Source: an uncultured Gammaproteobacteria bacterium
GTDB taxonomy: Bacteria > Patescibacteriota > Patescibacteriia > Magasanikbacterales > UBA922
Length of the DNA: 64,000 bases
Reading direction: 5' to 3'
Assembly: GCA_964522405.1 (NCBI GenBank)
Contig: CAZFTR010000002.1
Coordinates: 72,032-136,031 of the forward strand
Below, piece by piece: positions 12,401 through 60,143 of the stretch. The translations under genes and the position numbers were made by a program. The notes below the pieces were generated by a model. It searched no databases and had not been told where the DNA came from. It saw only the letters and a program-made list of their open reading frames with translations. Each line of letters opens with the position of its first letter. Positions within the stretch are counted from its first letter, which is position 1.

Positions 12401-13795
12401 TTACTGGCCCATCATCCGCAGTACTACATTTACAGTTCGTAGAACAATAGACAGATCCAGAAGAAAGGATCTGTTTTTTATATAATAGAGATCATATTGC
12501 AGTTTATCCTGAGAAGTTTTCATGGTGTCTGTATAGTTTTGGTGTATAGCAGCCCATCCGGTAATTCCAGGTTTAACAATATGTCTTAGAGCGTAATAAG
12601 GCATTTTTTCTGTTAATTCTTCTACAATTTGCGGTCTCTCTGGTCTTGGCCCTATTAAGCTCAGATCTCCTTTGATAAGGTTGATAACCTGAGGAAGTTC
12701 ATCAAGTCTGGTTTTTCTAAGTATCTTTCCAATTTTAGTAATTCTTTTATCATCTTTTTGTGCAAATTCAGGCTTGCCTTCTTTTTCCGCACTACCATCA
12801 GGAGCAAGGGCATACATGGTTCTGAATTTATATATCCAGAAGATTTTTCCAAATTCACCAACACGTTCTTGTTTGAAAAAAATCTGCCCCTTTGAGCTTA
12901 GCTTAATTGATAAAGCTATAAAAGGAAAAATGCTAATTAGAAAAATTAGTAAAACAATCGCAGCCAAATAATCTAACAAGCGTCTGAATTTATTATAAAT
13001 AGCCTGTTCTTTTTTTCGGAGATTATTGAGAAACCAAGTTTCTGAAAAAATAGAAGGCGGAATTCTGCCAGTTACAATTTCATAAAATTCACTAAAATCA
13101 ATATTTTGAACCGGCCAAAATAGAAGCTCATAAAGTTCTGTTAACACACCTTCTTGAGTTTTTATTCCCGGAGCTGTCACTATTATATCAGCTTTGTGGG
13201 TGCTTATTGCCGGACGTAGAGCTTTTAAACTGCGATAGATCGATACACTTCCTGGAAAATCTGAATTTTTAATTTTACCACTGGGATCACAGATAGCAGT
13301 AATTTTATAGCCTTTTTCTGGATGTCTTTCTATTATTTGAAACAAATGCTTTATTTCTTCTTCATATCCTACAATTACTACTTTTTTTAGTAATTTTTTG
13401 CTGCCGATCAATCGATCATAGACTGCTCGCCATAGAGAGCTAAAAGAATAACCAATTAGTATATTAAGTAAGAGAATGGTTTTTGGAGTAATATCTCCCT
13501 TTGGTAATAGATATAAAAGTAATATACTCAAAATCAATGACATTATTCCAGCTTCAAGTACTCTTTTGTATGATTTTGCTGTATAGGTTGATTTAAGATC
13601 GTATAAACCATTGATGAAATTGATCAAAATCCAAAATAAAAAAAGCACAACAAAAAGACCGCTATGTTTTTGCAAGGTTTCAATATTTGGTAATTGGCCA
13701 TGTCTGATTATTAGACTTAGCCAAAAAGCCAAAATATAGAAGAGTAGGTCTCCACCTGCTAAGATTATCTGTTTAATTCTATAAACGAATTTCAT
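12401..13795 (-). CDS. polyprenyl-phosphate sugar phosphotransferase (WbaP/CpsE-type priming transferase)
   Basis: N-terminal TM helices and C-terminal bacterial sugar-transferase domain (DELPQVINLIKGDLSLIGPRP). It is convergent with the cluster. Confidence 0.8.
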   Translation of the reverse strand: MKFVYRIKQIILAGGDLLFYILAFWLSLIIRHGQLPNIETLQKHSGLFVVLFLFWILINFINGLYDLKSTYTAKSYKRVLEAGIMSLILSILLLYLLPKGDITPKTILLLNILIGYSFSSLWRAVYDRLIGSKKLLKKVVIVGYEEEIKHLFQIIERHPEKGYKITAICDPSGKIKNSDFPGSVSIYRSLKALRPAISTHKADIIVTAPGIKTQEGVLTELYELLFWPVQNIDFSEFYEIVTGRIPPSIFSETWFLNNLRKKEQAIYNKFRRLLDYLAAIVLLIFLISIFPFIALSIKLSSKGQIFFKQERVGEFGKIFWIYKFRTMYALAPDGSAEKEGKPEFAQKDDKRITKIGKILRKTRLDELPQVINLIKGDLSLIGPRPERPQIVEELTEKMPYYALRHIVKPGITGWAAIHQNYTDTMKTSQDKLQYDLYYIKNRSFLLDLSIVLRTVNVVLRMMGQ

Positions 13796-16024: not shown

Positions 16025-16056
16025 AAACAGTAAACAGTAGTGACTGGTAAAATTTG

Positions 16057-16106
16057 TCATCTCGAGCGGAATTTTCTGAAAGAAAAATGGAGTCGAGAGA
16101 TCCCTT
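16057..16106. repeat. partial (left-arm only) copy of the inverted-repeat element found at 59989-60143
   Basis: About 45 of 50 nt identical to the left arm of the 59989 element (gtcatc[t/c]cgagcgga[a/g]ttttctgaaagaaaaatg...gatccct). No matching right arm lies downstream. Confidence 0.5.
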
Positions 16107-19926: not shown

Positions 19927-19953
19927 TAAAAAAGCACCGCAATTGTGGTGTTT
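19927..19953 (+). terminator. intrinsic terminator
   Basis: gcaccgcaattgtggtg hairpin followed by ttttt. Confidence 0.6.
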
Positions 19954-19970
19954 TTGATTATATTATGTTT

Positions 19971-20210
19971 GGGGCCGCGGGGGACGACTCCATCTCAAAT
20001 GCAACTCGTGTGCTGCTCCCGTCCCCACAAGAGAGGCACAGGTTTACTCGACACCGCAAAGCCGAGGAATTACATAGAGAGGAGTCGTCCCCAAAGGATC
20101 TGGAGGGTGGCCGTCTAAGCCTGGTTATCAAGCAGACTCAGGAAAGCAGAGGAGAGTGTTGTCGGAGAGACATCGCCACCCTTGAGAATCCTTAGCGCGT
20201 ACAGAGCATA
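19971..20210. ncRNA. GC-rich structured element made of two stem-closed units; candidate ncRNA of unknown family
   Basis: About 60% GC in a 33% GC context. GGGGGACGACTCC at 19979-19991 pairs with GGAGTCGTCCCC at 20081-20092, and GGAGGGTGGC at 20102-20111 pairs with GCCACCCTT at 20175-20183. There is no SD-led ORF. Confidence 0.35.
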
Positions 20211-20324: not shown

Positions 20325-21359
20325 ATGAGCTCAATAAACAGTTTTTTTGATCATGCAGTCAGTAAATCTGCTTCTGATTTGCATTTGGTTGGTGGGGAAA
20401 AGCCGATGATACGCATACACGGGGTATTGCAAGAAATATCAGATGAAGTGCTTCCTGTAGAGGTGCTGGAAAAGGAAATTTTTGCGCTTTTATCAGAAGA
20501 GCAGCAAGGTAAGTTCAAAAAGGAATTAGAACTTGATTTTGGATATGAATTAAATTCCAATCGTTTTCGTATAAATCTACACAGGCAAGAAGGTAAAATT
20601 GGTTTATCAGCACGTCTTATACCTACACAAATACCAACTCCAGAGCAATTGAACTTAGAAGAGAGTATTTCTGGATTTAGTGGTCTTATGGATGGTTTGG
20701 TTTTGGTAGTGGGGCCTACAGGTCATGGAAAATCAACAACCATTGCCAGTGTCATAGAGGAAATAAATAAAACTAGAAAAACTCATATTGTTACCATAGA
20801 GGATCCCATAGAGTTTCATTTTGAAGATAAAAAAAGCCTTATAGAACAAAGAGAAGTTGGGACAGATACTAATTCATTTGCTTCAGCCCTTAAACATGTT
20901 TTGCGCCAAGATCCTAATGTTATTTTGGTGGGAGAAATGCGAGATCCGGAAACTATAGCTACAGTGCTTACTGCAGCAGAGACCGGACATCTGGTTTTTT
21001 CTACACTTCATACCAGTACAGCGGCAGAAGCAGTTGAGAGAATTGTTGATGTTTTTGAGGGTTCAAAGCAAAAACAAGTACTTATTCAGCTCAGTGCTGT
21101 ACTCCGAGGAGTGGTTGCGCAGCAATTGGTACCCACAGTTGATGGTAAGCAGGTGATAGCAAGAGAAATACTAGTTAATACACCGGCGGTTGCCAACTTA
21201 ATTCGAGCCAATAATATTTCTCAGATTTATAGTATGATTCAGACTGGCACAAAAGAAGGTATGATAACTATGGAGAATTCAATTAAAAAATTATTAAAAA
21301 AGGGGATTATAGATCGGCAGACAGCAGAACGAAGAATAATTAGACATAAAAAAGTTTAA
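20325..21359 (+). CDS. pilT: type IV pilus retraction ATPase PilT
   Basis: Walker A GPTGHGKSTT, a T2SSE-family core and the roughly 344 aa size typical of PilT. A TGnTACAAT extended -10 element lies at about 20289-20297. Confidence 0.85.
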   Translation: MSSINSFFDHAVSKSASDLHLVGGEKPMIRIHGVLQEISDEVLPVEVLEKEIFALLSEEQQGKFKKELELDFGYELNSNRFRINLHRQEGKIGLSARLIPTQIPTPEQLNLEESISGFSGLMDGLVLVVGPTGHGKSTTIASVIEEINKTRKTHIVTIEDPIEFHFEDKKSLIEQREVGTDTNSFASALKHVLRQDPNVILVGEMRDPETIATVLTAAETGHLVFSTLHTSTAAEAVERIVDVFEGSKQKQVLIQLSAVLRGVVAQQLVPTVDGKQVIAREILVNTPAVANLIRANNISQIYSMIQTGTKEGMITMENSIKKLLKKGIIDRQTAERRIIRHKKV

Positions 21360-23466: not shown

Positions 23467-24171
23467 GTGAAGACGCTTTGCAGCGTTTTTTTGCTTGCTG
23501 CTCTTTTGGTGGCTCTTGCTTGTCACTGGCTGATCGGGGTTCTAACCCCCGAGAAGCCCAGTGAGTCAATTCAGGAGGTCTTTTCAGGACTTGTTCAGCT
23601 CGATGAACAGGAACGAGAAGAGATCCTTTGGGTTGAGAGTGAGCCTGAAGAAGGGCGCCGGCAGATCAAGCCTGCCCTAACCATCCTGCTTTCAAGATCA
23701 GACGTGCAAATGTACGTTGATCAGGAAATTGACGAGTACCAACTCGTCTCTCGAGGTACTCTGTCTGTCACGGTGCGAAATATCACTGTGGCACTGCGCA
23801 ATTCTTGGGCTGTGTTTGACACCCGGGTTTTGGTGCAATTCAATGGCAAAATGTACACTAGCAGAATAGTTTTGAGGTTGGCTGAAATCAACTACGAACG
23901 GGAAAGCCGAGCAATCTATGTGGGCAAGTTCAAGATCGATCATATCAAGACACCGGCAGCGCCTTACTTCGTTGCCGAACTTCTGAGATGGCCGCTCAGT
24001 GAACTGATCACCTGGACTATCTCGAATCGTCCACTCCACTACCTGACTGAAGATGACTTGTCTGACTTGCCGGTCAAAGGTGTTTGGCCTTCGGCGATTT
24101 GGTTGGAAGATGACAAGGTAGTCGTCGGTTTGGGTGTTGCAGACGACGTCGTGAGCTCAGGCTCTCCGTAA
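23467..24171 (+). CDS. GC-rich hypothetical secreted/membrane-anchored protein (no recognisable family)
   Basis: GTG start preceded by an AAAGGGGA Shine-Dalgarno sequence, N-terminal hydrophobic helix, and about 52% GC against the roughly 33% backbone. A bidirectional terminator follows. Confidence 0.5.
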   Translation: MKTLCSVFLLAALLVALACHWLIGVLTPEKPSESIQEVFSGLVQLDEQEREEILWVESEPEEGRRQIKPALTILLSRSDVQMYVDQEIDEYQLVSRGTLSVTVRNITVALRNSWAVFDTRVLVQFNGKMYTSRIVLRLAEINYERESRAIYVGKFKIDHIKTPAAPYFVAELLRWPLSELITWTISNRPLHYLTEDDLSDLPVKGVWPSAIWLEDDKVVVGLGVADDVVSSGSP

Positions 24172-26758: not shown

Positions 26759-26983
26759 TCAGATCTCGATCTCCGGAATCGCCCTGTTGTGGCGGTCCGG
26801 CGGGTCGAAGGGCTCGTAGGCCGGCAGCTGGGTCGGCCTCAGCGAGGTCTGTCCTTCTTCTCCCTCGTCGTCCTCCTCTTCGTCAGTGTAGTGGCGCACC
26901 GGCTCTTCCGCAGGACGGTCAAGCCGACGAGTGTCATCACATGGGCCCGGTTCTGGTGGGCTCGGGTGATCCTCTTTGGGCAT
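26759..26983 (-). CDS. GC-rich small acidic Pro-rich protein (74 aa), unknown function
   Basis: About 62% GC. AGAGGAG Shine-Dalgarno sequence 7 nt upstream, TTGACA-17-TATCTT promoter at 27015-27043 (minus strand), and a terminator hairpin at 26673-26696. Confidence 0.4.
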   Translation of the reverse strand: MPKEDHPSPPEPGPCDDTRRLDRPAEEPVRHYTDEEEDDEGEEGQTSLRPTQLPAYEPFDPPDRHNRAIPEIEI

Positions 26984-31608: not shown

Positions 31609-31635
31609 CTCTGCTAAATTTAGCAGAGTTTTTTT
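31609..31635 (+). terminator. intrinsic terminator of hppA
   Basis: ctctgctaaa/tttagcagag perfect palindrome followed by T7. Confidence 0.7.
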
Positions 31636-31644
31636 GATCATATC

Positions 31645-31673
31645 TTGACAAAACAGGATTTTTGTGTTATATT
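31645..31673 (+). promoter_or_regulatory. consensus promoter of GC-rich cassette 1
   Basis: TTGACA, 17 nt spacer, TATATT. Confidence 0.5.
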
Positions 31674-31796
31674 AATTTGTTATTTTCAGGACTTCGTTCC
31701 AGCTTTTTAGTTGCTTTTTTAGGCAGTTGAAAAGCCGGAGCGGAGAATAGATAGAGAAAACGTTGCGGTCGCCGGTGCCGCAGGAGGGAAGAAGAT

Positions 31797-32240
31797 ATGG
31801 AGAGGTTGCTTAACCTCTGGGACAATTTCGCCGACTGGCGCTGGACCCCGGTCATCGGGATCTTGGTGGCTCTCGTGCTCATCGTCGGCCTCATTCGCGA
31901 GGCGTCGTACATGATCGGGATGGAGCCGATCATCGGTGAGCAGTTCGCGGCCGAGGTCGGTGCTTCCTACTGTCAGGCGGCTCACGCCGACCCGGAGTGG
32001 GGAGCTGCTGAGCTCCGGGCCTGTGGCGCGCGGCTCGAGCAGCTGGTCACGCCCGAGGAGTGGGACGAGCTCAAGCCGACGATCATCTCGGTCTACTCCG
32101 AGGAATGCGTTCCTGTCAACCTCGGCCTCTGCGCTGAGATCGAGGCTCGGTACAAGACGCTCGAGGACGATCCTCATCTCGGAATGCTCGTCGTGGCCCG
32201 CGACTTCGTCTGGCTGCGACGCGGCCTGTACGGAGACTAG
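31797..32240 (+). CDS. GC-rich small membrane-anchored protein (147 aa), unknown function
   Basis: GGAGGGAAG Shine-Dalgarno sequence 6 nt upstream, one N-terminal TM helix, four Cys in the soluble part, about 60% GC. Overlapping alternative-frame ORFs were rejected. Confidence 0.5.
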   Translation: MERLLNLWDNFADWRWTPVIGILVALVLIVGLIREASYMIGMEPIIGEQFAAEVGASYCQAAHADPEWGAAELRACGARLEQLVTPEEWDELKPTIISVYSEECVPVNLGLCAEIEARYKTLEDDPHLGMLVVARDFVWLRRGLYGD

Positions 32241-32277
32241 GCCGCGAGCCAGGTTCGAACGTTCATCTCGCGTTGGT

Positions 32278-32390
32278 AGGCGAGATTCTGTTCTTTTCTT
32301 TTACGCTTTCATTGGAGACGAAGGCGTTCCCGGCGACAACTACCAGTCGCCATCGGAACTATGTTTTTTTGAAAAAGAAAATATTGACCA
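32278..32390 (+). repeat. 110-bp 3' repeat module, copy 1 (nested hairpins plus T-run; terminator-like)
   Basis: Nearly identical to 32842-32953. Contains GTTCCcGGCGACaactaccaGTCGCCatcGGAAC followed by tatgttttttt. Confidence 0.7.
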
Positions 32391-32434
32391 ATAAAAAATT
32401 GCTTTCTTAAGCATTTTTTTATTTTCTACAGGTC

Positions 32435-32463
32435 TTGACAAAAGCTAAAATATATGTTATAGT
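32435..32463 (+). promoter_or_regulatory. consensus promoter of GC-rich cassette 2
   Basis: TTGACA, 17 nt spacer, TATAGT. The leader shares ttgttatttt..gttccag with the cassette 1 leader. Confidence 0.5.
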
Positions 32464-32534
32464 CTTTTGTTATTTTTTGTTCCAGTCTAGTAGTTACTTA
32501 TTAGGTGCTTATTAGATCGGAGTAAGGAGCCATC

Positions 32535-32840
32535 ATGGACTTGTCGGTTCGTTTGGATCGCTGGATTCTGGTATGGGTCATTGCTTCCGCGCTGGTCGTC
32601 TTCGGCGTGCTGGTGTTCTCCACCAACGATTGGATGGAGTTCAACAGCGTAAACGTTGAGATCGACTTCGTTGCCGTCAGACTGGCCTCGGTCGTAGACG
32701 ACAACTCCGAGCAGGAGCAGCCGACGGCCAGTCCGACCGTCTACGCTCTGCGTCCCGGAATCCGTCCCGGGATCAGGATGTGGGACCATTCGGCCCACGA
32801 GTATCGCGTGGTAGCACGACTCGACCACCCGCGCCGGTAG
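32535..32840 (+). CDS. GC-rich small membrane-anchored protein (101 aa), unknown function
   Basis: TAAGGAG Shine-Dalgarno sequence 6 nt upstream, N-terminal TM helix, PGIRPGIR repeat, about 58% GC. Confidence 0.5.
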   Translation: MDLSVRLDRWILVWVIASALVVFGVLVFSTNDWMEFNSVNVEIDFVAVRLASVVDDNSEQEQPTASPTVYALRPGIRPGIRMWDHSAHEYRVVARLDHPRR

Positions 32841-32841
32841 G

Positions 32842-32953
32842 CGGGATTCTGTTCTTTTCTTTTACGCTTTCATTGGAGACGAAGGCGTTCCCGGCGACAA
32901 CTACCAGTCGCCACCGGAACTATGTTTTTTTGAAAAAGAAAATATTGACCACA
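32842..32953 (+). repeat. 110-bp 3' repeat module, copy 2
   Basis: Direct repeat of 32278-32390 with 2 to 3 mismatches, followed by a further hairpin terminator at 32959-32982. Confidence 0.7.
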
Positions 32954-33291
32954 TAAAAAACACGTGTAAACCGTGTTTTTTTGTTTTGGTAAATTTCCTT
33001 GCCTCGCCCCGATTCTCACCGGGGCGAAGCTGGTTGGCGACCTTGGTCGCTCAGGTGATGCAGGATCCGCCGATCAGGAGACCGGCAAAAGCAAAGGCCA
33101 GCGCTACGACCCTGATCATGTGCCAGAAGTCGGTCGGCTGTCCGTAACTGCGTCCACTCCGATTGCTCAAAACTTGTCCTCCCAGACTACATTTTAGACC
33201 TTTTTTGCCTAATAGGTCAAATAAGGCTAAATCATTGACTTTTTAGGCATTTTAGAATATAATCAATCCACACTTATAAAAATTCAAATTT

Positions 33292-37953: not shown

Positions 37954-39180
37954 ATGCAAAATCCTTTTGAAAATGCCATGAGTCAGCTAGATAAGGCTGC
38001 AAAGGTTATGAATCTGAATAAAGATACTCATGAGATACTAAGACATCCAGAGAGGGTGCTCACAGTGTCAATTCCAGTAAAGATGGATGATGGGTCAACA
38101 AAAGTATTTACAGGTTTTAGAAGTCAGTACAATAGCGCTCGTGGGCCATACAAGGGTGGAATTCGCTATCACTGGAACGTAACACTTGATGAAGTAAAAG
38201 CCTTGTCATTTTGGATGGCTATGAAATGCGCCGTGGCTGGAATTCCACTAGGTGGAGGGAAGGGTGGAATTATTGTAAATCCAAAAGAGCTTTCAGAGGG
38301 TGAACTTGAAAGATTGTCTCGTGGATTTATCCAGAAAATTTACAGATATATTGGCTCAGACAAAGATATTCCAGCACCTGATGTGTATACAACTCCACAG
38401 ATTATGGCTTGGATGAGAGATGAATATGAAAAACTTGTAGGGCATGAAGATCCAGGAGTTATTACAGGAAAACCACTTGATCAAGGTGGTTCAGAAGGAA
38501 GAGGATATTCAACAGCACAGGGCGGTTTCTATTGTCTTCGCGAGTCAGCCAAGAAACTTGGACTAGAACCAGCAAATACCAAAGTTGCAATTCAGGGATT
38601 TGGGAATGCTGGAAGTTTTATGGCCAAGATTTTATCAAAAGCAGGATACAAAGTAGTGGCAGTTACAGATTCTCGTGGCGGAGTGATGAATATGGAAGGT
38701 CTTGATGTGGAAGCGGTTTCTGCTCACAAAGAACAAACCAGATCAGTAGCTGATGCGCCAGGCACACAGCCGATAAGTAACGAAGAAATTCTTGAGCTGG
38801 ATGTAGATGTGCTTGTCCCTGCAGCACTAGAAAATGTAATTACGCAGGAGAATGCAGCAAATATCAAAGCAAAAGTAATTATTGAGTTGGCAAATGGTCC
38901 AGTAACTCCAGAAGCAGATGAAATTCTTCATTCAAATGGAATTTTGTTTGTGCCAGACATTCTTGCGAATGCTGGAGGAGTAACAGTCAGTTGTTTTGAG
39001 TGGCAGCAAAATGTTCGTGGAGAACATTGGACAGAAGAAGATGTAATTGAAAAATTAGATAAGCTCATGGTAGAAGCTTTTGATGCTGTTTGGGATGTTA
39101 AAGAAAAGCATGGTATTGATATGAGAACAGCTGCTTTTGTGCATGCGACTGGTTTGATCGAAGAGGCGATGAAGAAATAG
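37954..39180 (+). CDS. gdhA: Glu/Leu/Phe/Val dehydrogenase (glutamate dehydrogenase)
   Basis: Catalytic-Lys motif GGGKGG and an NAD(P) fold in the GFGNAG region. The terminator lies at 39200-39226. Confidence 0.85.
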   Translation: MQNPFENAMSQLDKAAKVMNLNKDTHEILRHPERVLTVSIPVKMDDGSTKVFTGFRSQYNSARGPYKGGIRYHWNVTLDEVKALSFWMAMKCAVAGIPLGGGKGGIIVNPKELSEGELERLSRGFIQKIYRYIGSDKDIPAPDVYTTPQIMAWMRDEYEKLVGHEDPGVITGKPLDQGGSEGRGYSTAQGGFYCLRESAKKLGLEPANTKVAIQGFGNAGSFMAKILSKAGYKVVAVTDSRGGVMNMEGLDVEAVSAHKEQTRSVADAPGTQPISNEEILELDVDVLVPAALENVITQENAANIKAKVIIELANGPVTPEADEILHSNGILFVPDILANAGGVTVSCFEWQQNVRGEHWTEEDVIEKLDKLMVEAFDAVWDVKEKHGIDMRTAAFVHATGLIEEAMKK

Positions 39181-39274
39181 AATTAAAGAAATATTAGAAA
39201 ACCCTCAAGAAATTGAGGGTTTTTTGATTGTGGAACCGAAGGTGGACGGAGATCTCCTTCGGTAGGTGTTGTTG

Positions 39275-39682
39275 TCAGGGAGTCTCGCCCTCGTAGAGCT
39301 TGGGACAGTGCCGGCGCAGGCGGGCGCGCCAGCGATCATTGGCGCACTCAGCCGGGCACCAGAATCCGAGTCTGCACATCAGGCGCTCGGCCAGCCGGTA
39401 GCCGATCTCGCGGATGTCACCGACCGCCTGGGTGCCGATGAACCGGTGCGGAATCCCGCAGCGGTCGAGAAAGGTCAGTGCTCGGGTGCAGGGGTCGGTT
39501 TCTCTTCCAACCCAGCTGAACTCCTCGGAGATGTATCCGTCTTCGAGGGCGCGCGTCAGACGCGCGCCGAAGCCGAACTCGATGAGGGGTCTGGGGTTCC
39601 CTTCGACGATTTCACAGAGAACCAGGATGCCACGGTGATCTCTGTCACCGAGGATCCGCATCATGTGGCGGTATTCTGTCAT
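39275..39682 (-). CDS. GC-rich hypothetical protein (135 aa) with C-terminal Cys cluster
   Basis: About 62% GC. GGAGAAGG Shine-Dalgarno sequence, promoter TTGCAA-17/18-TAATAT on the minus strand (39710-39739), WCPAEC...HCPKL possible zinc ribbon, and a terminator hairpin at 39243-39270. Confidence 0.5.
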   Translation of the reverse strand: MTEYRHMMRILGDRDHRGILVLCEIVEGNPRPLIEFGFGARLTRALEDGYISEEFSWVGRETDPCTRALTFLDRCGIPHRFIGTQAVGDIREIGYRLAERLMCRLGFWCPAECANDRWRARLRRHCPKLYEGETP

Positions 39683-39797
39683 ATTTGCCTACCTTCTCCG
39701 TCCAAAAAACATATTAAAACAAATAGATATTTTTTGCAAGTAAGATTTAATGTTTTTCTTGCATTTTCAGCCATTTTTTAGTAGCATAGGATATGCT

Positions 39798-40577
39798 ATG
39801 AAAGATTTTTTAAGAAGTATTATAAAAGAAGCTGGAGCTCTTTCTGTTGAGTATTTTCGCAAAGGTGTAACTCATGAGACTAAGAGTAATTTGAGTGATT
39901 TGTTAACTGAGGCAGATGTGGCAGTTAGCGAGCTTTTGGTAGAAAAAATTCATACAAAATATCCAGACCATCATATCTATAGTGAAGAGTTGGAAGAAGA
40001 TATCAATCCGGGAGCAGAATTTCGTTGGGTAATAGACCCAATTGATGGGACTAGAAATTTTGCTATGGGTCTGCCACTTTTTTGTCAAATTGTGGCTATT
40101 CAACAAAATGAAGAAATAATCCTAGGTGCAGTTTACAATCCTATTGCAGGAGAGTTATTTTTTGCAGAAAAAGGAAAAGGAGCAAGTATGAATGGGATGC
40201 CAATTTCAGTGGATAAAAAGGAAACACTAGATTATACAGCTGGATCATTTGGAGCTTATTCTCAGGAGAGTGATGTTTATGGATCTCATTTAGAGCTTTT
40301 TAAAAAAGTTAAGCATAGATTAATTGATGAAACAACCATGTGGAATCATATGTTCGGTTGTATGATTGCCGGTTGTCAGGTGGCCAGTGGAGGATTTAGT
40401 TATTTTGTGCAAAATGCCGGACTTGATCATGATTATATTGCCGCAGCACTTATTTGTCGCGAAGCAGGAGCAAAAGTAACAGACAGTGATGGAAATGATT
40501 GGATGCCAGGAAGGCAAGATATAATAATTGCCAATCCAGTTTTGCATGAACAAATTATGAAGTTTTTTAAGGAATAG
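39798..40577 (+). CDS. suhB: inositol monophosphatase family protein
   Basis: WVIDPIDGTRNF metal-binding motif. The start is set at MKDFLRS rather than the upstream extension that overlaps the divergent promoter. Confidence 0.8.
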   Translation: MKDFLRSIIKEAGALSVEYFRKGVTHETKSNLSDLLTEADVAVSELLVEKIHTKYPDHHIYSEELEEDINPGAEFRWVIDPIDGTRNFAMGLPLFCQIVAIQQNEEIILGAVYNPIAGELFFAEKGKGASMNGMPISVDKKETLDYTAGSFGAYSQESDVYGSHLELFKKVKHRLIDETTMWNHMFGCMIAGCQVASGGFSYFVQNAGLDHDYIAAALICREAGAKVTDSDGNDWMPGRQDIIIANPVLHEQIMKFFKE

Positions 40578-40582
40578 TTTCT

Positions 40583-43411
40583 ATGAAAACCTACAAAGAA
40601 TTTTTAGAAAATGGCGGAGAAAAAAAATGGCAAGCAATTTGGGAGGAGAGAGAGCTTTTCAAAACTCCGGCAGACGCAACTTCTGAAAACAAGATGTACA
40701 TACTTCCACAGCTTCCATATCCATCAGGAAGCGGTCTTCATGTAGGTCATGCTGAAGTTTATACTGCATGTGATATCTATTCTCGTTATCAGCGCATGAA
40801 AGGCAAAAAAGTTTTGCAGGTTTTTGGACTTGACTCTTTTGGTTTGCCCGCAGAAAATTATGCAATCAAGACAGGGGTTCATCCCAAGCAAACCATTGAT
40901 CAAACCGGAGAAAATTTTGTTTCCCAAGTAAAAGATTTGGGAATTTCAGTAGACTGGGATAGATTTGTGCGTACCAGTGATGCGGATTATTATAAGTGGA
41001 CTCAATGGTTTTTCTTGTTGATGTACAAACGAGGATTGGCATATAGAAAAAAGCAGGCAGTAAATTGGTGTGAAAGTTGTAAAACAGTTTTGGCCAATGA
41101 GCAAGTTGTAGAAGGAAACTGTGAAAGATGTGACACAACTGTTGAGCAAAAACAAATGGAACAGTGGTATTTGCGTATTACTGAATATGCTGATCGTCTT
41201 CTTGAGGGTTTGGAAAATATTGATTGGCCAGAAGAAACCAAAAAGCGCCAAGCAGATTGGATTGGAAGAAGTGAGGGCGCTGAAATAGATTTTGCGATTT
41301 TTGGTTCAGAGCAAAAAATAAAAGTATTTACCACTAGACAAGATACTTTATTTGGTGCAACCTATATGGTTTTGGCGCCAGAACATGGTTTAGTTCAAGA
41401 ATTAAAAGAAAAAATCGAAAATTTTGAAGAAGTTCAAAAATATATAGACAAAACCAAAAAGAAAACAGATCTAGAGCGACAAATAGAACAGGAAAAAACA
41501 GGAATAGAGCTAAAAGGTCTAAAAGCTATAAATCCGGTAAATGGAGAGGAAATTCCAGTTTGGATTGCTGATTATGTACTCATGGGCTATGGAACCGGAG
41601 CAATTATGGCAGTTCCGGCGCATGATGATCGGGATTATGAATTTGCTAGTAAGTTTGGGATTGAAATTAGAGAGGTTGTTGCAAAGAGGTTTGGAGAGCC
41701 GGTTGAGGGGGCAGAGCATAGAGACTGTGTTTTTGGAGTTGTGGTAAGGAATGAAAAAATTCTTGTTTTGTATGATAAAGAAAATAATGAGTATCGTTTG
41801 CCTGGAGGTGGGTATGATGGAGAAGATGAAATCAAGGCTCTTGAACGAGAGTTGATTGAGGAGTCAGGTTATACAGATTTTGAAATTGGAGATTGTTTAG
41901 GAACAATAAATAGTCATTTTTATGCAGTTTTGAAAAAGGTGCAGAGATCAAAATTTTCAAGAGCATATGTGATCAATGTTAAATCAGACAATCAGCAGCA
42001 GGTTTCAGATGAAGATGCAGTTTACGAAATAAAATGGTTAGAGCCGGAAAAAGCTTTTTCGGCCTTAGAAGGAAACAAGGAAGACGCTGGAGAATACGAG
42101 TTTGTAAAAAGATATATTGAAAAAAGCAATTTCCACAATGACAATGGTGTAATGATAAATTCAGATTTTCTAAATGAATTAACAGTATCAGAAGCAAAAG
42201 AAAAAGCACTTGATTGGCTGGAAGAAAAAAAACTTGGAAATAGAAAAGTGCAGTATAAACTTCGAGATTGGTCAGTTTCGAGGCAGAGGTTTTGGGGTGC
42301 GCCGATTCCGATGCTTTATGATGAAAAGGGTGAGCTACAACCAGTACTAGAGGGGGATTTGCCGGTTATATTACCAGACGACGTAGATTTCAAACCAACA
42401 GGGGAGTCTCCACTTAATTACTCAAAATCTTTTAATGATGGAGTAGAAGAGAAATATGGAAAAGGCTGGAAACGAGAACCAGACACACTTGATACATTTA
42501 TGTGCTCAAGCTGGTATTTTTTCCGATATTTGGACCCAAAAAATGAAACAGAATTTGCCTCACCAGAAGCTCTCAAAAAATGGATGCCAGTGGATTTTTA
42601 TCTTGGTGGTCCAGAACATGTCAATGGGCATTTACTCTATGCTAGATTTTTCACCAAGGTCTTATTTGACGCTGGGTATATAGATTTTGATGAGCCTTTC
42701 AAAGTAAATAGACATCAAGGATTGATTTTAGGAGAAGATGGTAGAAAAATGAGTAAGAGATGGAATAATGTGGTAAATCCAAGTGATGTGGTTTCTGAAT
42801 TTGGAGCTGACACCTGTCGTATGTATGAGATGTTTATGGGGCCACTTGAAGATGATAAGCCGTGGAATATGAATGGTGTGAAGGGGATTAGTAGGTTTTT
42901 GGAGAGAGTGTGGAGATTGCAAGAAAAAGTTCAAGATTCTGTTTCAGATGAAAATCTAGAAAAATTAGTAAATAAAACAATTAAAAAAGTTGGTGAAGAT
43001 CTCTCAGCTCTTGGCTTTAATACTGCAATTGCAAAATTAATGGAGCTTTCAAATGCGTTTGGAAAAGCAGAGAGTATTTCAAAAGAAAATTTCAAAGTAT
43101 TTATCAAAATGCTTTCTCCATTTGCTCCTCATGTCTCAGAAGAACTTTGGAGTGATCTCGGTCATGAAAGTTCATTAATTCTCGAAACATGGCCAAAATA
43201 TGATGAATCAAAAATTATAGAAGAAAAACTAACCCTAGCAGTTCAAGTAAACGGAAAAGTTCGAGCAAATATCGAAATTGACGCAGAAGAAAACGAAGAG
43301 AAAATAAAAGAATTGGCTCTAAACCAGGAAAACGTTCAAAAATGGCTGGAAGGAAAAGAACCAAAGAAAGTAATCTATGTAAAAGGACGTTTGGTTAGTG
43401 TGGTAGTTTAA
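40583..43411 (+). CDS. leuS: leucine--tRNA ligase with an inserted NUDIX-box domain
   Basis: HVGH (HIGH) and KMSKR (KMSKS) motifs, zinc knuckle CESC...CERC and CP1 editing TTRQDT / MAVPAHDDRDYEF. A roughly 180 aa insert at about 41690-42235 carries a perfect Nudix box GGGYDGEDEIKALERELIEESGY. Confidence 0.9.
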   Translation: MKTYKEFLENGGEKKWQAIWEERELFKTPADATSENKMYILPQLPYPSGSGLHVGHAEVYTACDIYSRYQRMKGKKVLQVFGLDSFGLPAENYAIKTGVHPKQTIDQTGENFVSQVKDLGISVDWDRFVRTSDADYYKWTQWFFLLMYKRGLAYRKKQAVNWCESCKTVLANEQVVEGNCERCDTTVEQKQMEQWYLRITEYADRLLEGLENIDWPEETKKRQADWIGRSEGAEIDFAIFGSEQKIKVFTTRQDTLFGATYMVLAPEHGLVQELKEKIENFEEVQKYIDKTKKKTDLERQIEQEKTGIELKGLKAINPVNGEEIPVWIADYVLMGYGTGAIMAVPAHDDRDYEFASKFGIEIREVVAKRFGEPVEGAEHRDCVFGVVVRNEKILVLYDKENNEYRLPGGGYDGEDEIKALERELIEESGYTDFEIGDCLGTINSHFYAVLKKVQRSKFSRAYVINVKSDNQQQVSDEDAVYEIKWLEPEKAFSALEGNKEDAGEYEFVKRYIEKSNFHNDNGVMINSDFLNELTVSEAKEKALDWLEEKKLGNRKVQYKLRDWSVSRQRFWGAPIPMLYDEKGELQPVLEGDLPVILPDDVDFKPTGESPLNYSKSFNDGVEEKYGKGWKREPDTLDTFMCSSWYFFRYLDPKNETEFASPEALKKWMPVDFYLGGPEHVNGHLLYARFFTKVLFDAGYIDFDEPFKVNRHQGLILGEDGRKMSKRWNNVVNPSDVVSEFGADTCRMYEMFMGPLEDDKPWNMNGVKGISRFLERVWRLQEKVQDSVSDENLEKLVNKTIKKVGEDLSALGFNTAIAKLMELSNAFGKAESISKENFKVFIKMLSPFAPHVSEELWSDLGHESSLILETWPKYDESKIIEEKLTLAVQVNGKVRANIEIDAEENEEKIKELALNQENVQKWLEGKEPKKVIYVKGRLVSVVV

Positions 43412-43446: not shown

Positions 43447-44985
43447 ATGAAGCTTGAACAGGGTTTGAAAAAGATAATTAGTTCCCCAAGCAAGGCATTT
43501 TCAGTGCTTTGCTTTTGTTTTCTGCTCGGAGTAGCTTTTATTTCGATTTTAGATTTTAAGCTGAAGTTTTTTCACGCCTATATTTGTTTTTTTACAATTA
43601 TTTCATCTTTGTTTTTGTTTTGGAATAAAAAACAAATAAGATTTTCATTATTTTGCGTATTTTTATTTGTTTTTGGGATTATCAGATATGCTTTAGCATT
43701 TCCAATTAATCAAAATCATATTTCTAAGTATATAGATCAGAAAATTAGTTTTATTGGAATTATTACTGCTGAACCTGATGTGCGTATGGATGGAGTTAGA
43801 TACATTATTGAAAGCAGAGAGGTTTTGGAAGAGGAATCAAGTAAGAAATCAAAAGGACGAGTATATATAAAAGAAAAACTGTATCCGCGATACAGCTATG
43901 GTGATAAATTAGAAATTTTTTGCAGAATCCGGGAACCAGAACCAATTGAGGCAGATCCAGGATCAAAAGATAGAGATTTCCGCTATGATCGTTATCTGGC
44001 GCGTTTTGGAGTATTTGCAAATTGCCAAAATCCAAAAATAGAGGTTTTGGAAGCGAGTCGGGGGAATATGATCATGAGATCAATACTTTCTTTAAAAGAA
44101 ATAGTAGCCCGGAAAATAAACCAACTTTGGCATGAGCCCCACGCTAGTTTTATGGCAGGCTTGCTCTATGGTTATCGTGGAGGACTTGGAAGCTTGAATG
44201 AGCTTTTTAGTAGAACAGGAGTAACTCATATTGTTGCGATCTCTGGATACAATATTACAATTATTTCTACGATTTTGATCACAGTTTGTGTGCGACTTTT
44301 GATCCCTAGAAAAAAGGCTTTTTGGTTGATTGTTATTGGAATAATAGTTTTTCTTATTTTTGCCGGGCTTAGCGCCTCAGTTGTCCGAGCTGGAATTATG
44401 GGAATAATTGTTTTGATTGCAAAGCAGCTTGGTAGAGCAAGTCGAGTAGGAAATGTTATGTTACTTACAGCAGTTGTTATGACTCTGCACAATCCCTTTA
44501 TTCTTATTTGGGATGCAGGATTTCAATTATCTTTTATTTCAACTCTTGGGCTTGTTTATCTGACAAAATTTGTAGAAAAACCCTTTGAGAAATTACCGGA
44601 AATATTGGGAATAAAAGAATCAGTCCTTTCAACTTTGGCTGCTATTATTTCAACATTGCCGCTTATACTTTATCAGTTTGGGAGATTATCGATTGTCGCT
44701 CCAATTGTAAATGTGTTGATACTCTGGATTATTCCCTGGATTATGATTGTTGGTTTTTTTGGAGTTGTGGTTGGTTTTGTTTTTAAACCGATTGCAGTTT
44801 TACTTGCTTGGATTTCTCATGCAGGCATGGCATATATAATTTTGATTGTTAAATTTTTTGCTGGATTTAGTTTTGCAGCTGTGGATATGCGAGTTCCGAT
44901 TTGGTTTATGTTGGCTTCATACTTTGCAATGATTTGGTTTGTGATCAAATCAAAGAAATTAGAAAATAAAAAAAGCTCTGGATGA
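43447..44985 (+). CDS. comEC: ComEC/Rec2-family DNA internalisation channel (membrane competence domain)
   Basis: Polytopic membrane protein with DUF4131-like N-terminus and a Competence domain (GVTHIVAISGYNITI). Confidence 0.75.
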   Translation: MKLEQGLKKIISSPSKAFSVLCFCFLLGVAFISILDFKLKFFHAYICFFTIISSLFLFWNKKQIRFSLFCVFLFVFGIIRYALAFPINQNHISKYIDQKISFIGIITAEPDVRMDGVRYIIESREVLEEESSKKSKGRVYIKEKLYPRYSYGDKLEIFCRIREPEPIEADPGSKDRDFRYDRYLARFGVFANCQNPKIEVLEASRGNMIMRSILSLKEIVARKINQLWHEPHASFMAGLLYGYRGGLGSLNELFSRTGVTHIVAISGYNITIISTILITVCVRLLIPRKKAFWLIVIGIIVFLIFAGLSASVVRAGIMGIIVLIAKQLGRASRVGNVMLLTAVVMTLHNPFILIWDAGFQLSFISTLGLVYLTKFVEKPFEKLPEILGIKESVLSTLAAIISTLPLILYQFGRLSIVAPIVNVLILWIIPWIMIVGFFGVVVGFVFKPIAVLLAWISHAGMAYIILIVKFFAGFSFAAVDMRVPIWFMLASYFAMIWFVIKSKKLENKKSSG

Positions 44986-45328
44986 GCTTGGAATTAGTGC
45001 AGGAGTGATCTCGGGGCTCGCAGTGGCGCACTTCCGACCTTTTCTCGGTATGGGCGGCGGCTAATTGCCAGCCGGCCTCACCGTAAGGTGTTGGATAGTA
45101 CGCCACGCGAGCCCTCTAGTCAGATGCCGTGCATCTCGTTCTCCCCCTAATAGCCGCATGTGGCCCAGACGTAGTTTGGTTTCGTTGCCGTTTTGCCTCC
45201 GTGGTTTTGAAGTGGAGGTCTTGGCTCGAATTGGGCCGTCGTTGATTCTTCTGCTCGGCTATAAGCAGAAGAACCCGACGCAAATATTAAATCATAAAAA
45301 AGATTTTTTGTCAAGATTATCACTCTCC
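44986..45328. ncRNA. 343-bp GC-rich non-coding island (about 58% GC), candidate structured RNA or inserted element
   Basis: No SD-led ORF. It contains a perfect 10-bp hairpin TTCTTCTGCT/AGCAGAAGAA at 45246-45273 and other stems. It lies between comEC and the ComEC-type MBL gene. Confidence 0.3.
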
Positions 45329-59987: not shown

Positions 59988-59988
59988 T

Positions 59989-60143
59989 GTCATCCCGAGC
60001 GGAGTTTTCTGAAAGAAAAATGAAGCCGAGGGATCCCTGTCTATGTAGTAGAAAGAGTGGATTAAAAGTGTTGCATTCTACTGTATAGACAGGGATCCCT
60101 CGGCTACGTCCCTTACTTCGTAGAGACTCCGCTCGGGATGAAA
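59989..60143. repeat. 155-bp element with 16-bp perfect terminal inverted repeats and a nested internal palindrome; MITE-like or structured RNA
   Basis: Outer IR TCATCCCGAGCGGAGT pairs with ACTCCGCTCGGGATGA. An inner stem of about 27 bp pairs AGCCGAGGGATCCCTGTCTATGTAGTAGAA with TTCTACTGTATAGACAGGGATCCCTCGGCT. A partial copy lies at 16057-16106. Confidence 0.55.

Follow-up and report, generated by a model that had tools for sequence, protein, structure and literature searches.

Analyses of a 64,000-nucleotide stretch of contig CAZFTR010000002.1 (assembly GCA_964522405.1), hereafter the window, meaning this whole stretch, revealed a block rich in guanine plus cytosine (GC) between the genes gdh and suhB, which carries on its minus strand an intact open reading frame (ORF) for a 135-amino acid orphan protein, designated P0001. 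We consider it probable (roughly 0.7) that this block is a recent lateral import of an intact gene from an unsampled donor of high GC content that uses Shine-Dalgarno (SD) sequences, placed in a variable spot between gdh and suhB. Base composition, choice of codons, CpG level and ribosome-binding signal all mark the block as foreign, its ORF is coding and is missing at the corresponding site in relatives, and its junctions are real.

A two-change-point maximum-likelihood fit placed the block at positions 39230-39671, with 63.6% GC inside and 35.2% outside, and the block was visible in composition profiles too; the mean GC content of the window is 36.0% and that of the host genome 35-36%. The fit thus returned the GC-rich cassette between the gdh terminator and suhB that an earlier note, made from the nucleotide letters, had described. 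The block starts 6 nucleotides past the hairpin terminator of gdh (39198-39223). The long suhB ORF opens at 39750, and alignment with seven homologues puts the start of the gene at 39798 (MKDFL...), so that the 16-residue N-terminal extension is probably spurious. The cassette and suhB do not overlap, contrary to what the earlier note had read; the two genes are divergent and are separated by an AT-rich spacer of 115 bp.

Analysis of composition by codon position indicated that the minus-strand ORF at 39275-39682, which had been noted before, has a significant codon phase. Its GC content at the first, second and third codon positions (GC1, GC2 and GC3) is.63,.50 and.77, a contrast reached by 0 of 20,000 shuffles, and the order GC3>GC1>GC2 is the one expected for genes from GC-rich organisms. 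In 38 host genes GC3 is.244±.026 and does not rise above.32, which leaves the P0001 ORF about 20 standard deviations higher. Leucine is encoded by CTC and CTG only, Ile by ATC at 8:1, Tyr by TAC at 4:0 and His by CAC at 4:0; cytosine fills 52% of third positions, versus 7-9% in gdh, suhB and leuS, and the observed to expected ratio of CpG is 1.1, that is, without depletion, versus 0.43-0.62 in host genes. With an Arg to Lys ratio of 20:1, the protein likewise shows a high-GC signature. Long ORFs come easily in GC-rich DNA (the estimated stop frequency at the composition of the block is about 3% per codon), and the ORF was judged coding because the codon phase signal is decisive. A 171-amino acid ORF on the plus strand over the same DNA (39266-39781) was rejected as a shadow frame, its phases of.77,.50 and.63 being the mirror image, and it had no match in Pfam or among plasmids. 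We conclude that 39275-39682 codes for a protein, or did so until very recently, and that it evolved in a GC-rich genome.

The ribosome-binding signal separates the gene from those of its host. The SD sequence GGAGAAGG reported earlier upstream of the minus-strand ORF is present at 39692-39699 and pairs with a generic anti-SD at -8.8 kcal/mol, versus -5.6 kcal/mol for the best of the 38 host genes, the median of which is -0.9. When the ORFs of four further GC-rich islands (see below) were included, strong SD sequences (-7.4 to -10.8 kcal/mol) were found in 5/5 island ORFs and in 0/38 host genes (Fisher 1e-6). Core genes of the relatives examined, whose loci are given L numbers here, are likewise devoid of SD sequences; the few genes with one include, in L008 and L009, the ORFs of the variable gap and, in L004 and L008, GC-rich islets. 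An SD sequence may be a sign of recent acquisition in this lineage.

A jump in base composition as abrupt as this one could arise if an assembly artefact or a contaminating sequence had been joined to the contig. The junctions gdh-ORF-suhB are, however, 100% identical in three separately assembled Logan read sets (SRR8146441, SRR8146440 and SRR31802802), one of them from an unrelated accession series; a chimera is excluded since the same junctions occur in independent assemblies, and we regard an artefact as having a negligible chance. It is also very improbable that the region is a GC-rich structured RNA and not a protein gene. GC-rich RNA genes are conspicuous in AT-rich genomes, other GC-rich islands in the window do resemble RNAs and the whole transcript folds somewhat better than shuffles (z=-2.55), whereas the strong one-frame three-base periodicity of the ORF is missing in the RNA-like islands, no Rfam match was found at E<=1, and the SD sequence and the ATG are correctly placed.

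The host, judged from its SuhB, is a fairly isolated member of Candidatus Magasanikbacteria, within the Candidate Phyla Radiation (CPR). The closest SuhB in the genome collection came from a Candidatus Magasanikiibacteriota metagenome-assembled genome (MAG) with 45% identity, the protein search returned many Magasanikbacteria SuhB with identities of 62% or less, and a scan of JGI contigs with SuhB yielded no close relative. The contexts of the SuhB homologues showed a kept gene order, H+-PPase–IF2–thioredoxin–(DUF4349)–gdh–[gap]–suhB–[gap]–leuS–comEC(N)–comEC(MBL), where PPase stands for pyrophosphatase, MBL for metallo-beta-lactamase and DUF for domain of unknown function. In L004, L006-L010 and L012-L014 the space between gdh and suhB is either empty or occupied by other genes: it measures 0-53 bp in L006, L007 and L012-L014, has a minus-strand gene of the sigma-70 family in L004 and L009, and contains an unrelated 96-amino acid membrane ORF in L008. 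Searches of the loci of relatives with P0001 by tblastn gave no match. Since the gap is either this short or occupied by unrelated genes, the P0001 block is a lineage-specific insertion at a variable spot; P0001 is absent from the syntenic site and is not a conserved housekeeping gene kept here in relatives.

The statement of the earlier note that no family could be recognised for the protein extends to about 15 billion known proteins. P0001 had no Pfam or NCBIfam match at E<=10 and no PHROGs or PADLOC match at permissive thresholds, and the best match in a sequence search of the PDB was unrelated (E=0.92). There was no tblastn match among 50,697 phage and 72,556 plasmid records, no match in scans of IMG/VR and of JGI contigs, and no blastn match of the island DNA to plasmids. 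A word-seeded search of 5.8 billion clusters returned P0001 itself alone, while a full HMMER scan of 1.84 billion representatives returned P0001 and one further sequence, P0002 (E=1.4e-8). The latter was rejected as a homologue, being a 662-amino acid translation of tandem repeats in which one stretch of 25-30 residues was matched nine times. No actinobacterial or other high-GC source was found, as no collection searched held a homologue. By these comparisons P0001 is a strict orphan, and its protein family is new.

P0001 is a soluble protein of 15.8 kDa (GRAVY -0.41, isoelectric point 7.6) without a hydrophobic segment, and has Cys at positions 23, 65, 75, 103, 109, 113 and 126 and His at 6, 16, 79 and 125. 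The C-terminal cluster is spaced C103-x5-C109-x3-C113-x12-C126, with His125 adjacent to C126, and is flanked by an Arg-rich segment, RWRARLRRH. The letters WCPAEC...HCPKL, which the earlier note had taken as suggestive of a zinc ribbon, are present in this region. A zinc ribbon consists of two Cys knuckles (CxxC or CPxC) about 10-30 residues apart; since P0001 has no CxxC knuckle anywhere it is by definition not a zinc ribbon, and neither the Pfam search nor the single-sequence AlphaFold2 model, which was uninformative (predicted local distance difference test score, pLDDT, 43.5; predicted template modelling score, pTM, 0.26), supported one. In WhiB-like Fe-S proteins the pattern C-x(n)-C-x2-C-x5-C is followed by a G[VI]WGG turn, whereas the spacing in P0001 differs and Pfam gave no match. 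Some other metal or redox site is possible, and we suggest only tentatively, as a guess with the odds against it, that P0001 is a small cytosolic protein with metal-binding or redox Cys and an Arg-rich helix contacting nucleic acid or protein.

Analysis of the sequences bordering the ORF revealed a stem-loop at its 3' end and, as a feature absent from the earlier note, complementarity between the two ends of the block. The stem-loop, also reported by the earlier note, has an 8-bp stem and a 13-nucleotide loop (ACCGAAGG-13 nt-CCTTCGGT, 39235-39263), is unique in the window and had 0 matches in 100 shuffles. The ends of the block are complementary in 10/10 positions, with TGGACGGAGA at 39243-39252 of the plus strand pairing to TCTCCGTCCA at 39695-39704, and the pairing is extended by GGTAGG (39261-66) with CCTACC (39688-93); in the mRNA, GGUAGG of the 5' arm thus also pairs with CCUACC (39261-39266 of the window). 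A 10-nucleotide repeat between two 40-nucleotide end windows was reached in 26 of 20,000 shuffles, and pairing between windows of 30 nucleotides of the 5' untranslated region (UTR) and 60 nucleotides of the 3' UTR gave p=0.0028 with a duplex z of -3.1. The minimum free energy (MFE) fold of the whole transcript pairs both ends, and the 5' arm begins where the promoter-like site would set the first transcribed nucleotide. Applied to the four other coding islands, this test gave no signal, and with the L004 islet a marginal one (p≈0.05); a second copy of the block ends was not found in the window at up to 3 mismatches. The complementarity suggests that pairing between the 5' and 3' UTRs masks the ribosome site, a predicted cis-regulation. 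We favour this over a terminal repeat because neither a second end copy nor a target duplication was seen.

The promoter reported earlier, TTGCAA (39739-39734) and TAATAT (39716-39711) with a spacing of 17, is present as letters and would place the start of transcription near 39704. As a promoter it is a weak candidate: it fits 8/12 consensus positions, AT-rich DNA yields matches of this quality by chance, and the promoter scan made no call there. The scan found about equal numbers of sites in shuffles and in the real sequence, and its sole promoter-like call in 39100-39850 lies inside gdh on the plus strand (39154-39183), before the gdh terminator and outside the GC-rich block. It is nevertheless plausible from its sequence that TTGCAA-17-TAATAT acts as a promoter.

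With regard to mechanism, the DNA probably entered by natural transformation, would then have been inserted illegitimately just past the gdh terminator, and may have been trimmed by later deletion to a gene-sized unit. The window contains genes for uptake, namely ComEC, PilM, a pilin and a prepilin peptidase, and a 344-amino acid ORF (20325-21359), read by eye, is presumably PilT. No recombinase, integrase or transposase was found among 20 window ORFs scanned with Pfam, which are part of the ORFs of the window; given this and the presence of ComEC and type IV pilus genes, we infer that uptake of free DNA is the simplest route. Transcription would run leftward from the AT-rich spacer common with suhB, starting near the position given above, and would end at the 3' hairpin and at the gdh terminator, which scores as terminator-like on the minus strand as well and hence probably also ends the orphan transcript. 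The 3' hairpin would pair through its loop (UCUCCGUCCA) with the first 10-16 nucleotides of the mRNA, including the SD sequence, and this end pairing would hide the ribosome-binding region, protect the ends or do both, as in pairing of the icaR type.

The main alternative is that the block is an inert and very recent passenger, an environmental high-GC fragment caught at an intergenic break whose ORF is intact by recency and functionless here. We consider this unlikely, though it accommodates several of the observations: neither a homologue nor a fold could be detected for P0001, the host makes no use of SD sequences, the promoter is weak, the leader is sequestered in the MFE structure and one strain alone carries the gene. 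It does not readily account for a block trimmed so closely to a single complete ORF plus its SD sequence and 3' hairpin, as a random fragment of 440 bp would seldom hold one whole gene, nor for its place in a streamlined genome in which the homologous gaps of relatives are 0-53 bp; five SD-led units in 64 kb, three of them with near-consensus TTGACA-17-TATAnT promoters, moreover suggest selective retention. A different proposal bears on how the DNA entered and does not conflict with import from a high-GC donor, namely that the unit is a self-contained mobile cassette and the end repeat a terminal inverted repeat or recombination hairpin of the miniature inverted-repeat transposable element (MITE), insertion sequence (IS) or attC kind. 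The 10/10 inverted repeat exactly at both ends of the block (p≈0.001) and the gene-sized unit agree with it, and orphan content is typical of integron cassettes. The ends are, however, present once in the window (searched at <=3 mismatches) and are not common with other islands, borders read by eye showed no target-site duplication and no GTTRRRY/RYYYAAC core, the scanned ORFs held no integrase or transposase, and the left arm lies inside the hairpin and not at the terminus, so that such a cassette is distinctly improbable.

Several points weigh against the recent import of a functional gene as we read it. No recombinase, target-site duplication or second end copy was seen, and the route of entry is therefore one that we infer. 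Every copy of the locus found is 100% identical, P0001 has no homologue, the protein model is of low confidence, and the match of the promoter candidate to consensus is weak. The anti-SD motif is absent from about half of Parcubacteria 16S rRNAs (PMC9297842). If the present lineage lacks it, the SD sequence of P0001 is a relic and the GC-rich, paired leader would allow little translation, in keeping with an inert passenger and a regulated gene alike.

Comparison with known systems indicated that the P0001 cassette is a laterally acquired orphan gene islet, of a known kind and moron-like in layout. Laterally acquired ORFan genes are reportedly the subject of work by Daubin and Ochman in 2004, and ORFan genes in genomic islets are said to have been treated by Hsiao and colleagues in 2005; horizontal gene transfer (HGT) in Patescibacteria belongs to the same context. 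Like ORFan islets, the P0001 gene is short, of atypical composition and free of homologues, and occurs in one lineage between syntenic core genes. Of the features by which islets are recognised, atypical composition and codon usage and absence at the syntenic site were both found here, while no donor or homologue elsewhere was found among the 5.8 billion clusters and 1.84 billion representatives. Classical ORFans have a higher AT content than their host, whereas the P0001 gene exceeds its host by about 28 points of GC; it also has, unlike them, a strong SD sequence where the lineage's own genes have none, and no adjacent mobility gene or tRNA. Phage morons, reportedly described by Juhala and colleagues in 2000, resemble it as single extra genes between two others, with a promoter-like site, a terminator and a composition unlike that of the neighbours. 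The flanks of P0001 are in contrast housekeeping genes in phylum-wide order without a prophage, and no PHROGs, phage or IMG/VR match links it to phages.

Integron cassettes share with the P0001 unit the layout of one ORF with a hairpin-forming 3' end, the frequency of content of unknown function and the occurrence of several unrelated units in one genome region. The P0001 unit differs in standing alone, without an attC core or array found at its site or an IntI among the 20 ORFs scanned in the 64 kb, and in having a promoter-like site of its own upstream; the attC core GTTRRRY/RYYYAAC was looked for at both borders by eye, without a pattern search, and the hairpin has an 8-bp stem and 13-nucleotide loop. 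The 5'–3' UTR pairing that masks the SD sequence in Staphylococcus aureus icaR and the fold-back ('fbi') of hok mRNA are the closest parallels to the predicted end pairing: in P0001 a C/U-rich, anti-SD-like segment of the 3' UTR complements the SD end of its own 5' UTR (10 bp + 6 bp, p≈0.003), a predicted fold-back over the translation start as in hok. For P0001 the pairing is a prediction, and SD pairing may not be used by the host at all. The protein itself is unlike those of hok-like type I toxins, which are hydrophobic, shorter than 60 residues and controlled by an antisense RNA; P0001 has 135 residues, is soluble and has no evident antisense.

Four more islands in the window, at 31797-32240, 32535-32840, 26759-26983 and 23467-24171, resemble the P0001 block in having coding periodicity, a high GC3 and a strong SD sequence (Table 1). 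Their ORFs had no significant Pfam, PHROGs or PADLOC match and each protein is alone in its 90%-identity cluster; we list them provisionally as orphans. The first two are referred to here as islands A and B. A match of the island A protein to an IMG/VR portal protein (33% identity over 64 amino acids, 32 bits, seeded by PEEWDELK) was rejected as chance. The PPase–IF2 gap and the gap between comEC(N) and the MBL half, which carry islands here, measure 8-130 bp in relatives, and these islands are hence also insertions.

Table 1. Coordinates in the window of the P0001 block, its putative signals, the neighbouring genes and the other coding islands
Feature	Position	Strand	Basis or remark
GC-rich foreign block	39230..39671	none	change-point fit and composition profiles
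ORF of 135 amino acids (P0001), orphan; soluble, Arg-rich, 7 Cys	39275..39682	-	ORF list
Shine-Dalgarno sequence GGAGAAGG (plus strand CCTTCTCC)	39692..39699	-	-17..-10 from ATG
Weak sigma-70-like promoter candidate TTGCAA-17-TAATAT	39739..39711	-	read from sequence; AT-rich DNA
3' stem-loop ACCGAAGG-13 nt-CCTTCGGT, 8-bp stem	39235..39263	-	downstream of ORF stop
Inverted-repeat 3' arm, mRNA UCUCCGUCCA, anti-SD-like	39243..39252	-	in loop of 3' hairpin
Inverted-repeat 5' arm, mRNA UGGACGGAGA-AGGUAGG	39688..39704	-	covers predicted 5' end and SD
gdh (Glu/Leu/Phe/Val dehydrogenase; PF02812, PF00208), upstream neighbour	37954..39180	+	ORF list, domains
gdh hairpin terminator, terminator-like on minus strand as well	39198..39223	both	
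suhB (inositol monophosphatase family)	39798..40577	+	alignment with seven homologues; 259-amino acid gene call in Logan contigs
ORF of 147 amino acids, GC3.84	31797..32240		significant codon phase
ORF of 101 amino acids, GC3.77	32535..32840		significant codon phase
ORF of 74 amino acids, highly acidic, Pro-rich, disordered-looking	26759..26983	-	significant codon phase
ORF of 234 amino acids, 50% GC, GC3.55	23467..24171		significant codon phase

The earlier note had proposed that the islands point to repeated acquisition of small foreign genes and had raised a single donor. Of the first proposal, the part concerning the four coding islands, which are alike, stood; the islands at 19934-20210, 44961-45284 and 32973-33197 have no codon phase and do not fit it. 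With regard to the donor, the third-position composition of the P0001 ORF is compatible with that of island B (p=.24), marginally off that of island A (p=.012) and clearly different from that of 23467-24171, and one donor is not established. The islands share few ends or modules: a 3' terminator module of 130 nucleotides is common to islands A and B only, and the P0001 island shares none.

In total, at least 5 intact orphan genes of 50-64% GC (four at 60-64%), each with an SD sequence, lie within 64 kb of housekeeping synteny. CPR bacteria (Patescibacteria) have tiny, streamlined genomes, and their hosts are mostly unknown. The P0001 gene alone would be ordinary HGT, and the notable part is a cluster of SD-led, GC-rich orphans in a CPR genome without SD sequences: foreign DNA from a very different organism enters such genomes and persists, an SD sequence together with GC3 gives a simple marker for recent imports, and a donor found in the same samples could be a lead to the organism with which this bacterium is physically associated. 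We regard as improbable the further reading that the islands form a set of expression-ready, GC-rich, SD-led orphan minigenes, each equipped with a promoter and a terminator, captured repeatedly and retained by a naturally competent, SD-less CPR bacterium from one high-GC partner, possibly its unknown host, in which case the genes could be orphan immunity or host-interaction factors. If it were true, the SD sequence would mark acquired genes across Magasanikbacteria and a lock between the 5' and 3' UTRs would keep the P0001 gene quiet.

Islands A and B are adjacent in the PPase–IF2 gap (31620-32960), which measures about 84-130 bp in relatives. Their proteins are mutually unrelated, each with an N-terminal hydrophobic stretch resembling a transmembrane segment, and each ORF lies behind a near-consensus promoter, TTGACA-17-TATATT or TATAGT. 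The 130-nucleotide module follows both minigenes (32269-32398 and 32830-32959) with 95% identity and includes a terminator hairpin. The third GC-rich segment of this gap, 32973-33197, has no periodicity in the listed plus-strand ORF; on its minus strand an ORF for a 22-amino acid hydrophobic peptide (MIRVVALAFAFAGLLIGGSCIT, about 33119-33051), resembling type I toxins, was seen by eye. The minus-strand ORF at 26759-26983 lies behind TTGACA-17-TATCTT and a strong SD sequence, had no family match, and sits between the RNase Y gene, whose family was taken from the identical locus L015, and a 245-amino acid ORF which we take to be truB. The ORF at 23467-24171 starts about 110 bp downstream of the genes for tRNA-Glu and tRNA-Met, has an N-terminal hydrophobic stretch and a strong SD sequence, gave weak sub-threshold Pfam matches only (DUF1439, E=0.02), and may be an older or differently sourced import.

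The islands 19934-20210 and 44961-45284 fold far better than shuffles (z -4.2 to -6.6) and hence look like structured RNAs; none of the islands had an Rfam match, whether gathering thresholds or E<=1 were applied. The minus-strand element at 44961-45284 is a GC-rich sequence of about 320 nucleotides between the comEC halves (z=-6.6), with a TTGACA-17-TTTAAT promoter at 45314-45286 pointing into it, and is a candidate novel structured RNA. The gap between the comEC halves is 8-20 bp in relatives except L008, where a GC-rich islet (12495-12694) encodes a 25-amino acid hydrophobic peptide (MFIFRLLRDAALIRFGLLISILIWG) behind a strong SD sequence. The intergenic island at 19934-20210 has 53% GC and lies upstream of the 344-amino acid ORF at 20325-21359; its z is -4.2 on the plus and -5.0 on the minus strand, and it may be either a new RNA or a housekeeping RNA that has diverged.

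A further islet was found in L004, from the Magasanikbacteria MAG nzgw355, where a GC-rich segment (1670-2000; 57% versus 41%) lies just past the thioredoxin terminator and carries on the minus strand a 69-amino acid orphan ORF with phase GC of.56,.46 and.67 (p≈.03) and an SD-like GAGGGGG; the segment CCUCUCAAG of its 3' UTR complements the SD region (p≈.05). Next to suhB in the window, the leucyl-tRNA synthetase gene (40583-43411) encodes an enzyme whose editing domain is followed by an inserted NUDIX domain (residues 383-500, E=3.7e-11), and the enzymes of several relatives have an alpha/beta-hydrolase domain instead. A 51-nucleotide sequence is present at 16055-16105 and, 44 kb apart and with 90% identity, at 59988-60038, where it overlaps a 30-nucleotide, 93% inverted repeat (AGCCGAGGGATCCCTGTCTATG..., 60024-60105), and the two copies possibly represent a small repeated element.

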